35,258 bases of DNA from a virus. Its lineage: Duplodnaviria; Heunggongvirae; Uroviricota; Caudoviricetes. The translations under genes were made by a program, and so were the position numbers. Location of the stretch: the IMG/VR virus record IMGVR_UViG_3300045988_142641; one strand, written 5' to 3'. Shown one piece after another: positions 8,646 to 9,785 of this stretch (the stretch's first letter is position 1; each line of letters opens with the position of its first letter). The notes under the pieces are model-generated. The model did no database searches. It was not told where the DNA came from and was given only the letters and a program-made list of their open reading frames with translations.

Positions 8646-9785
8646 CTAGAGCTTATAAAGCTCAGTCAATCTAGCTTTTTCTTTGGCAAATTCTTCATCA
8701 AGGTTCGAGAAATCTGGAAGTGTAACCATTAAATCCTTAAGTTGATGAATAACATTCCAAGCATCGTAATGAATAAAGGGGTTTAAGCCAATTACGTTTC
8801 CCTCATCATTATTTTTAGATTTTCCTACACCACATAATTTGATGAATTTGTTGATTGCAGATGTTTCATTCCAGTCAGAAACAAAAAGAAGCAAGGCAGA
8901 AACAGCCAAAAGGGGATTGTTTTTTTTAACAGCGGATAACCCCCTGATCTTTCTGAAAAGAAATTCGTGATGTCTAGTTATTTTTTGTGCTATCCTTATC
9001 GTTGCTTCATATTTATCTTTAAGCAACCTTCTATCATAAACCTGATAACCTCGATCTCGTGCTACTAACCGATATGCTTGTTTAGTAAATATGGTGCTAT
9101 TCACAAGATTATAGAAAATAGCATTATCTTTATTGGTCATATCGATCATCAATGATGGGTATTTGAACCTTAAAGAACGATAAACTTCATCGTTTATATC
9201 AAACCAAGATTTATTTTTTCTCTCTTCATCGAAAATATATGTGTCTTCTCCTTTGCGGGAATACATGCTGGCTCTTACTAGGTTGATCATGTGAGGGCTG
9301 TAGTTAACAGAAAAAGTGCCTGATTGGCGTAATTCAGTAAACCACCGTCGCATGTTTCTAATATCTTCCTGATTGAACTCTTCATGTTCAATACCTCTAC
9401 ATACAAGCTCTCGAATTATACTTGTAATCTCAGAGCCGGAAGTGCCTAATTTTATAAAACCATCCTTTGAAGAATCTATTTGCTTATCATCGCCATTGTA
9501 ATGATCGCAAAATATTTTGTGCGCGTCTGTTCCGTCTTTTGTTCTAAACGAAAAATGAGATTGGCTAACTATTTTATTTGTTGTTTTCGAATAACCTTCT
9601 GAAACAACAATTGCACCGCTTACATTGCAAATTGGGCACTCTGCATCAAACGCAACAAATTCCTTGAAATCACTAAAATTAAGCACGTTATTTGATAAGT
9701 AAAGGTTTAACAATTGAACTATGTCCAATTCCTTTTTGAATGTACGAGAATAGACCGTAATTGCCATTTGCACTCCCTTCGTCAT
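8646..9785 (-). CDS. hypothetical protein (379 aa), AT-rich cargo gene
   Basis: Long AT-rich ORF. The SD (aggga) lies between the first and second in-frame ATG, so the true start may be the second Met at about 9767. Has CxxC and His/Cys clusters but no family I can name. Confidence 0.65.
   Translation of the reverse strand: MTKGVQMAITVYSRTFKKELDIVQLLNLYLSNNVLNFSDFKEFVAFDAECPICNVSGAIVVSEGYSKTTNKIVSQSHFSFRTKDGTDAHKIFCDHYNGDDKQIDSSKDGFIKLGTSGSEITSIIRELVCRGIEHEEFNQEDIRNMRRWFTELRQSGTFSVNYSPHMINLVRASMYSRKGEDTYIFDEERKNKSWFDINDEVYRSLRFKYPSLMIDMTNKDNAIFYNLVNSTIFTKQAYRLVARDRGYQVYDRRLLKDKYEATIRIAQKITRHHEFLFRKIRGLSAVKKNNPLLAVSALLLFVSDWNETSAINKFIKLCGVGKSKNNDEGNVIGLNPFIHYDAWNVIHQLKDLMVTLPDFSNLDEEFAKEKARLTELYKL

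Follow-up and report, generated by a model that had tools for sequence, protein, structure and literature searches.

The tail gene region of a P2-like prophage raises the question of what an AT-rich gene, lodged between two conserved phage genes, does for the element that carries it or for the cell that harbours the element. The prophage is IMG/VR virus record IMGVR_UViG_3300045988_142641, a stretch of 35,258 nucleotides (the window). The gene lies on its minus strand at 8646-9767 (stop codon 8646-8648) and encodes a 373-residue protein, which a first-pass annotation had described as an orphan with no recognisable motif and had compared with abortive-infection effectors. The reading favoured here, held with about even confidence, is that the product is a stand-alone, prophage-borne protein of an uncatalogued family that most likely protects the lysogen against other phages. 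Such a role is favoured because the gene appears to be exchanged, selected, stand-alone cargo that resides where defence genes reside.

A complete P2-like prophage fills the window, as its backbone gene profile attests, with the genes ordered gpD (456-1619), tape measure, tail tube, FI (5568-6758), G (11179-11706), tail-fibre gene H (11710-13755), terminase (22598-24400), portal (24400-25434), replication gene A (29260-31587) and integrase (34111-35124). Between the tail-sheath gene FI and the tail-fibre assembly gene G lies a 4.2-kb AT-rich island, whose guanine-plus-cytosine (GC) content is 35-40% as compared to 54-58% in its flanks, and which holds four open reading frames (ORFs), namely one of 289 residues, a recombinase stub of 111 residues, the gene in question and one of 314 residues. 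The gene itself has a GC content of about 36-37%, against 55-58% in the flanking phage genes, and is the largest of the four; the first-pass annotation had called it AT-rich and the largest unknown in the island. An island of deviating GC content between two conserved phage genes is what is expected of a phage 'moron'. Both its place between G and FI and the bounding inverted repeats, known from GenBank entries AJ512683 and AJ512685, identify the island as the classical P2 Z/fun cargo slot, and it likewise consists of foreign DNA with left and right inverted repeats beside G and FI.

The ORF had been reported as 379 codons spanning 8646-9785, with the start codon left to be settled between 9785 and 9767. 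The ORF is indeed present on the minus strand, but computation places its true start at the ATG at 9767, which yields the 373-residue form. This choice follows from the conservation of M1, T4 and S7 (numbered from ATG 9767, each at least 95% conserved among 180 full-length relatives with a median identity to the query of 29%), from a match to PHROG 12525 that begins only at residue 7 of the 379-residue form, from the RefSeq gene models, which are of the 373-residue form, and from the position of the Shine-Dalgarno sequence AAGGGAG (9773-9779, minus strand), 5 nt upstream of the ATG. Homologues across phyla also begin at the residue matching ATG 9767, and no Shine-Dalgarno sequence precedes the ATG at 9785, so the six in-frame codons at 9768-9785 (minus strand) are probably untranslated. 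The expression signals can be followed through five genomic contexts that share the gene: the window, Serratia sp. Ag1, a lambdoid prophage of Escherichia coli SF-468, the P2 Z slot of E. coli ES5 and the chromosome of Serratia montpellierensis. In all five the Shine-Dalgarno sequence is invariant, as is a promoter-like extended -10 element, TGcGATAAT (9806-9814, minus strand, read from 9814 to 9806), which rests on a sequence match and on this conservation, yet was not reported by a simple two-hexamer promoter scan. Eleven nucleotides past the stop codon begins the intrinsic-terminator-like hairpin that had been noted earlier (8617-8634, minus strand; -17.9 kcal/mol, z = -2.9), with a 7-bp stem and a T-rich tract; it is retained in all five contexts, and with it the gene possesses a terminator of its own, as a moron should. 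Directly beyond it lies the ORF that had been recognised as an integrase remnant (8275-8610, minus strand), which does correspond to the C-terminal part of a tyrosine recombinase.

The contrast between the gene and this neighbour is instructive with respect to selection. When the window copy is compared with the four other copies by the Nei-Gojobori method, the ratio of nonsynonymous to synonymous substitution rates (dN/dS) of the gene is 0.09-0.13, or about 0.11, indicating purifying selection; the stub, compared against the same loci, has a dN/dS of 0.45-0.49 and only 75% nucleotide identity, versus 91.5% for the gene. Moreover, 54 nt of the stub are missing from its copies in ES5 and S. montpellierensis, and the copy in the window is frameshifted by 1 nt at the 3' end. 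It matches PF00589 (E = 1.2e-11) over profile positions 92-166 of 172, which falls short of a complete recombinase, and RefSeq annotates it as a pseudogene that lacks the N-terminus. The stub is thus a decaying 3' remnant of a gene for a tyrosine recombinase of about 200 residues. An intact version of this recombinase, 200 residues long, is found in other E. coli prophages (for instance at 8046-8648 of locus L002), where it lies beside different cargo, and this small-recombinase family may be linked to the exchange of prophage cargo. Two proposals that would have given the neighbouring recombinase a present role were considered and rejected, namely that it operates an invertible-promoter switch, and that the protein is its working partner. 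In both cases the recombinase is a decaying stub, and no inverted repeats surround the promoter.

Because homology among the five contexts starts at the same point, runs through an identical junction between terminator and stub, and ends at the same point, the boundaries of what has moved can be drawn with some precision. Upstream, homology begins exactly at a 24-nt hairpin, GTCCGCTCTGTGCCAGTAGCGGAC (9878-9901, minus strand), which folds as single-stranded DNA with -11.1 kcal/mol (z = -5.8), and continues from there through TGcGATAAT and the Shine-Dalgarno sequence. Downstream, a second hairpin, CAGGGCTGCAATAGCAGCCCTG (8293-8314, minus strand), is conserved in the five contexts, and homology stops after it; in E. 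coli SF-468 the match is limited by window positions 8282 and 9942, the latter inside an internal repeat described below. By these alignments, the moving unit is a segment of about 1.6 kb, from roughly 8282 to 9901, that comprises the junction hairpin, the promoter-like site, the gene, its terminator and the dead stub. To judge from where its copies now lie, this cassette has moved among P2-like prophages, a lambdoid prophage and a Serratia chromosome.

The repeats that bound the Z region offer a plausible substrate for such movement. At the left edge of the island lies an FI-proximal repeat (6942-7016, plus strand), which AJ512683 and AJ512685 label 'right inverted repeat' and which is conserved in P2-like phages, and at the right edge a G-proximal repeat (11090-11126, plus strand; hairpin of -7.2 kcal/mol); segments 6942-6978 and 11090-11126 form an inverted pair. 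An additional copy (9914-9985, plus strand), 82% identical to 6945-7016 and in direct orientation to the FI-proximal repeat, lies between the cassette of the gene and that of the 314-residue ORF. The repeats (6942-7016, 9878-9985 and 11090-11126) are GC-rich and share a 24-nt hairpin core, and the GTCCGCTCTGTGCCAGTAGCGGAC hairpin itself duplicates the boundary repeat of the P2 Z region; in ES5 this hairpin is the boundary repeat proper. Breakpoints with other genomes fall exactly within these repeats, at 9942, at 11117, where the homology of WCHEC035148-type loci stops, and at the hairpin 9878-9901. From the alignments, the repeats behave like recombination junctions for the insertion of cassettes, and the extra internal copy at 9878-9985, which divides the island of the window into cassettes, points to successive insertions at the repeat. 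A 2004 paper by Nilsson et al. is said to claim, in its title, site-specific recombination at the P2 Z-region locus, which would agree with successive insertion. The gene resembles the Z-region cargo of P2-like coliphages, fun(Z) of P2 and the ORFs of P2-EC58 and P2-EC67, in occupying the same slot between G and FI, flanked by the same inverted repeats, in its AT-richness and in carrying expression signals of its own. The entries for P2-EC58 and P2-EC67 (AJ512683 and AJ512685), which were compared by slot, hold single ORFs of 232 and 303 residues, whereas here the slot holds at least two or three cassettes with an internal repeat between them. P2 fun(Z) blocks phage T5.

The description of the protein as an orphan does not survive comparison with the databases. 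The long form is matched over residues 7-378 to positions 1-356 of the 399 in PHROG 12525 (E = 6.7e-139, 464 bits), of which it is a direct, full-length member, together with gp107 of Salmonella phage SSU5; this family carries no function annotation, so that membership explains nothing about mechanism. Homologues fall into 103 clusters when grouped at 90% identity; at 50% identity, a set of 1.84 billion representatives yields 217 clusters. They range over Alpha-, Beta- and Gammaproteobacteria and Cyanobacteria. All relatives are of 340-440 residues or are fragments, with one fixed architecture of about 370 residues, and no domain fusion occurs in the 217 clusters at 50% identity. The identical sequence is present on more than 100 public contigs, on every one of which it is named 'hypothetical protein'; carriage is nonetheless rare, with 19 of 5426 complete E. 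coli genomes positive. More distant relatives are carried by IncFII plasmids, conjugative elements and chromosomal defence islands, and one homologue lies in a P2/P4-like element of a metagenome-derived contig. Homologues in SSU5 and in a Klebsiella phage-plasmid are 27-28% identical to the query (tblastn). That of SSU5 (SSU5_107, 89182-90381 of the phage genome) lies among early-type genes, in a region that also holds a DNA methyltransferase and many small genes of this type, and a homologue occupies a similar position in both SSU5-type phage-plasmid records inspected (SSU5 and the Klebsiella plasmid). Homologues are carried by about 190 plasmids of about 110 kb from Salmonella, Klebsiella, E. 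coli and Enterobacter. The SSU5-type copies also raise the question of whether the homologue serves the phage-plasmid itself.

The claim that the protein has no recognisable motif stands only in part. It holds for Pfam, NCBIfam and PADLOC, in which no family is found. The two segments singled out earlier, CPICNVSG and HKIFCDHY, are both present and far from chance: their cysteine (Cys) and histidine (His) residues form a tetrad, C44-x2-C47...H83-x3-C87 (encoded at 9507-9638, minus strand), of which C44, C47 and H83 are 100% conserved and C87 99% across the 180 relatives. Four conserved ligands thus fall into two knuckles, as in a zinc ribbon, and this ligand pattern suggests that the tetrad is a predicted structural zinc site of zinc-ribbon type. 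As in Cys2-His-Cys modules of the zinc-ribbon and treble-clef kind, a CxxC knuckle and beta-strands are followed about 35 residues on by an H-x3-C pair, but no zinc-finger Pfam model matches the protein, and its domain is mildly acidic, which ribbons that bind nucleic acids typically are not. Other residues are almost as constant, including E13 and R140 (99% each), N324 (98%), D41 and W142 (97% each), and near the C-terminus a motif, G323-N-x-I-G-L-N-P-F331 (encoded at 8775-8801, minus strand), is 93-98% conserved (G327 and P330 97%, F331 95%, N329 94%). A reading of this motif as Fic-like was set aside, for it lacks a histidine, as was an HNH or His-Me finger around H71 and H83, since the predicted structure has no helix after the hairpin, H71 reaches just 86% conservation and no hidden Markov model matches. 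Matches to SabA_adhesion (E = 0.012) and to DUF7516 (best E = 0.0019, in 9 of 48 members) are sub-threshold noise.

An AlphaFold2 model built from a 48-sequence alignment is confident, with a mean predicted local distance difference test score (pLDDT) of 91.8 and a predicted template modelling score (pTM) of 0.88. In it, an N-terminal part of about 98 residues that is rich in beta structure, and into which the tetrad segment falls, is followed by an all-alpha part of about 270 residues; the median isoelectric point is 6.4 for the N-terminal domain (mildly acidic) and 8.5 for the C-terminal domain (mildly basic). A Foldseek search with this model returned nothing at E <= 0.001 in the PDB or BFVD, so that any statement of 'no known fold' extends to solved structures and viral predicted structures only, and sequence and profile searches against PDB chains likewise returned nothing. 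The most hydrophobic stretch, a helix of the form LLAxSALLLF, lies mostly under the transmembrane threshold (median maximum 19-residue hydropathy of 1.43, versus a threshold of 1.6), and because of this the product is likely a soluble cytoplasmic protein. An effector acting on membranes or forming pores was rejected as a candidate, given that the hydropathy is mostly below threshold and the model globular.

Hints of function come from the genomic neighbourhoods of homologues. Eighty loci were retrieved from species-representative genomes with the motif GNxIGLNPF as the search pattern, ORFs were called, and 1459 neighbours were clustered. No conserved partner gene emerged from the 80 loci, the commonest neighbour clusters being found in 12 of them. 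Known defence genes nonetheless recur: a Gabija or PDC-S02 gene lies within 10 kb, and often only 23-214 bp away, in 26 of 77 loci, counts that are raw, with neither correction for shared ancestry nor a genome-wide background rate. A GajA- or GajB-type gene accounts for 23 of the 26, with matches reaching E = 1e-279 for GajA and E = 1e-250 for GajB and spread over three subtypes, and PDC-S02 is recurrent. With the family member written as X, the arrangements comprise GajA-GajB-X (gaps of 71-214 bp), X-GajA-GajB (gaps of 74-118 bp), X convergent with GajB and, on a conjugative element of Erwinia with a fourth Gabija subtype, GajA-GajB-X-YaaC. Members that are 51-59% identical to each other adjoin three unrelated GajA subtypes, and within one subtype member and GajA diverge together across different gene orders (59/47, 70/57 and 85/92% identity). 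Because related members lie beside unrelated GajA subtypes, and because of this co-divergence, the link to Gabija seems to have arisen repeatedly and not to be the legacy of a single event.

Examination of 146 dereplicated close neighbours from the 50 Gabija-free loci uncovered, among others, CBASS parts (cyclase, E1-E2, CapP and 4TM effector), LmuB of Lamassu, RmrA of Rosmer, ATPases of mad3 type and OLD-like ATPases, toxin-antitoxin pairs and integrases. The family is therefore placed recurrently beside known defence systems, as guilt by association would require of an anti-phage gene. Individual settings vary: the Pectobacterium homologue lies in an island with resolvases, the Pseudomonas homologue at the end of a prophage adjoining umuDC, and the Acinetobacter homologue among HATPase_c_3, DUF6685, AcrVA2-like and Zeta-toxin genes. 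The unrelated genera Pseudomonas (P. viridiflava, with umuD) and Acinetobacter (A. baumannii) share one setting, an error-prone polymerase gene (umuC/IMS) immediately upstream of the homologue, an adjacency that may be a coincidence of cargo regions.

Two further features of location favour an anti-phage role. A second hotspot of the same prophage carries PD-T4-6-like kinases and a PP2C phosphatase domain, and a hotspot among the tail genes of P2 is reported to contain about 16% of P2 defence systems (PMC13586616). The general idea put forward in the first-pass annotation, that of defence-type cargo in a phage slot, thus finds support in context, namely in the Z/fun slot, the hotspot and the homologues in defence islands. 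The result that had been named beforehand as speaking against the annotation, a confident hit in a family of housekeeping or structural phage proteins, was not obtained. The gene is also similar to the single-gene systems of PADLOC (PD-T4, PD-T7 and PD-Lambda, PDC-S and Abi) in consisting of one gene, in lying on mobile elements or in defence islands and in its patchy distribution, although no domain or fold common to both was detected. Under an anti-phage role, the Cys2-His-Cys tetrad would bind structural zinc in a zinc-ribbon-like module, and this mildly acidic module might recognise a phage-derived or phage-modified protein, not DNA. The polar residues E13, D41, R140, N324, N329, D245 and Y253 could, given their conservation, form a ligand-binding or catalytic site that delivers a block to phage development, with either abortive infection or direct interference as the outcome. 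The more specific proposal of an abortive-infection effector finds no support in the analysis; such a role is possible, but the protein carries no recognisable toxic domain.

Several observations weigh against protection of the lysogen. None of the 5027 PADLOC v2 models matches the protein, nor does any model of Pfam or NCBIfam, and no toxic, nuclease, NADase, pore or kinase domain was found by sequence or fold searches; of the effector domains that would mark an abortive-infection gene (nuclease, NADase, pore, kinase or protease) none is recognisable. The neighbourhood counts are subject to the limits given with them. The argument of guilt by location is tempered by the fact that P2 hotspots also hold non-defence cargo, including partition systems and cytolethal distending toxin (PMC9122126). 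Polar residues that are near-invariant across phyla appear to fit a biochemical activity better than they fit a sensor engaged in an arms race. Finally, the homologue of the roughly 190 plasmids, at a similar position in the two SSU5-type records inspected, could have a role beneficial to the phage other than defence.

Some of these observations also speak for the alternative that survives best, which is that the protein is a non-immune factor of lysogenic conversion or element maintenance, such as a regulator, a metabolic or stress protein, or a determinant of plasmid or prophage stability. This possibility is rated as unlikely. The non-defence cargo of P2 hotspots is in keeping with it, as is the label of 'putative lysogenic conversion proteins' that the authors of AJ512683 and AJ512685 gave to Z-region ORFs; the presence of a homologue in so many 110-kb plasmids, its similar position in two SSU5-type records and the two copies that adjoin umuC or umuDC fit as well, and the invariance of residues from phylum to phylum hints at a biochemical activity that has been conserved. 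Against it, the distribution is very patchy (19 of 5426 complete E. coli genomes), the raw neighbour counts show strong over-representation of known defence systems, and no DNA-binding, enzymatic or membrane domain was detected with Pfam, NCBIfam, PADLOC or PHROG.

A second alternative retains an immune function but makes it a dependent one, the protein being an accessory, sensor or regulator of OLD/Gabija-type systems that broadens their range of triggers or restrains autoimmunity; stand-alone copies in prophages and plasmids would then act on a Gabija or OLD system that the host encodes at another site. Genes of Gabija type outnumber all other neighbours by a wide margin, and the three unrelated GajA subtypes beside moderately similar members, the co-divergence across gene orders, and the closely spaced same-strand arrangements, including that of Erwinia, speak for such a role. 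Against this, Gabija, composed of GajA (an OLD-family ATPase-nuclease) and GajB (a UvrD-like helicase), is described as a complete two-gene system. In four subtypes and several arrangements it is the most frequent neighbour of the family, but the protein is homologous to neither GajA nor GajB, and most members have no Gabija neighbour. A Gabija component would be encoded with GajA and GajB, whereas about two thirds of the homologous loci, the window included, lack a Gabija-type gene within 10 kb. In the window, no Gabija-type or OLD/GajA gene was detected by PADLOC among the scanned ORFs of the island and the second hotspot. Convergent arrangements, furthermore, are not operons, and co-divergence is confounded by shared island ancestry. 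An accessory role is for these reasons distinctly unlikely. An equally low likelihood attaches to its boldest form, in which the family would constitute a new class of zinc-dependent immune proteins with an unseen fold, coupled to OLD/Gabija systems as a sensor or as a brake on autoimmunity and also able to act alone on prophages, plasmids and phage-plasmids that carry it without such a system.

Counter-defence, the reverse of the favoured protective role, would have the protein neutralise host immunity, possibly of the Gabija or OLD type, upon entry or residence of a mobile element. The carriers, which are prophages, phage-plasmids, IncF plasmids and conjugative elements, are appropriate to such a factor, as is the setting of the SSU5 copy near a DNA methyltransferase and many small early-type genes; the protein lacks an effector-like domain, and an acidic N-terminal domain would presumably be common among protein inhibitors. 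Many chromosomal copies, however, lie within defence islands right next to intact Gabija, CBASS or Lamassu genes, some of them in operon-like arrangements, which would be odd for an inhibitor, 373 residues is large for an anti-defence protein, and anti-defence genes are present in only 28 of 1511 P2 elements (PMC13586616); this alternative is accordingly rated as very unlikely. That the gene is a non-functional relic like the adjacent stub, as a pseudogene next door and a uniform database name of 'hypothetical' might suggest, is effectively refuted by the selection analysis, in which five pairwise comparisons gave the low dN/dS of the gene, and the intact full-length homologues across Proteobacteria and Cyanobacteria, the confident fold prediction and the conserved Shine-Dalgarno sequence, promoter-like element and terminator leave it a very small likelihood.

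Protection against other phages is retained as the favoured role. Neither the slot, nor its repeats, nor the notion that hotspots carry defence genes is new; what is new is the unnamed family, absent from PADLOC v2 (2023) and with no solved structural relative, together with the precise anatomy of the cassette and the recurrent association with Gabija. A search of the literature by accession numbers and of the DefensePredictor supplements found no mention of the protein, although the gene may have been validated before. If the protein does protect against phages, it adds to the catalogue a defence family that PADLOC v2 lacks, and because it has no relative among solved structures its mechanism lies beyond guessing from existing systems. 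The family is small and fixed in architecture, with an invariant predicted zinc site and few invariant polar residues, features that suit it unusually well to mutagenesis and to the study of its structure. Its juxtaposition with several unrelated Gabija subtypes yields a testable hypothesis of cooperation between defence genes, and the sharply bounded cassette, with its hairpin junction and dead recombinase stub, is a clean example of cargo shuttling between P2-like prophages, lambdoid prophages and chromosomes by way of the repeat-bounded Z-region slot. Should there be no immune role, the gene is one more conserved hypothetical cargo gene; it is in either case a good candidate and an experimental lead rather than a surprise.

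The remaining contents of the island have histories of their own. The 289-residue ORF (7286-8155, plus strand), for which no family was found in Pfam, NCBIfam, PADLOC or PHROGs, also lies beside the module in Serratia sp. Ag1 (98% identity) and is missing beside it in E. coli ES5, E. coli SF-468 and S. montpellierensis. The 314-residue ORF (10112-11056, plus strand) forms a cassette in its own right, flanked by two copies of the hairpin repeat, and shows two weak signals, one for a GIY-YIG nuclease at its N-terminus (Pfam E = 0.017; PADLOC PDC-S14 E = 0.0075), the other resembling a helix-turn-helix at its C-terminus. A 100%-identical copy of this protein is encoded in lambdoid prophages of many E. 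coli strains, where the gene adjoins an intact 200-residue tyrosine recombinase and different cargo. An Rfam scan of the island gave chance-level matches only: one resembling an internal ribosome entry site (E = 0.88) and a tmRNA-like match at 8161-8214 near the integrase stub (12.2 bits, E = 0.062, model positions 83-140), which is probably due to chance.

The second AT-rich hotspot of the prophage (25751-29038) corresponds to the old/tin slot, between portal gene Q and replication gene A. It holds two tandem Ser/Thr kinases that match the PD-T4-6 and mad6 models (E down to 1.7e-54), followed by a 388-residue protein with a PP2C phosphatase domain (E = 4.7e-6). To judge from these domain matches, the kinases and their phosphatase partner likely form a kinase-based defence system.

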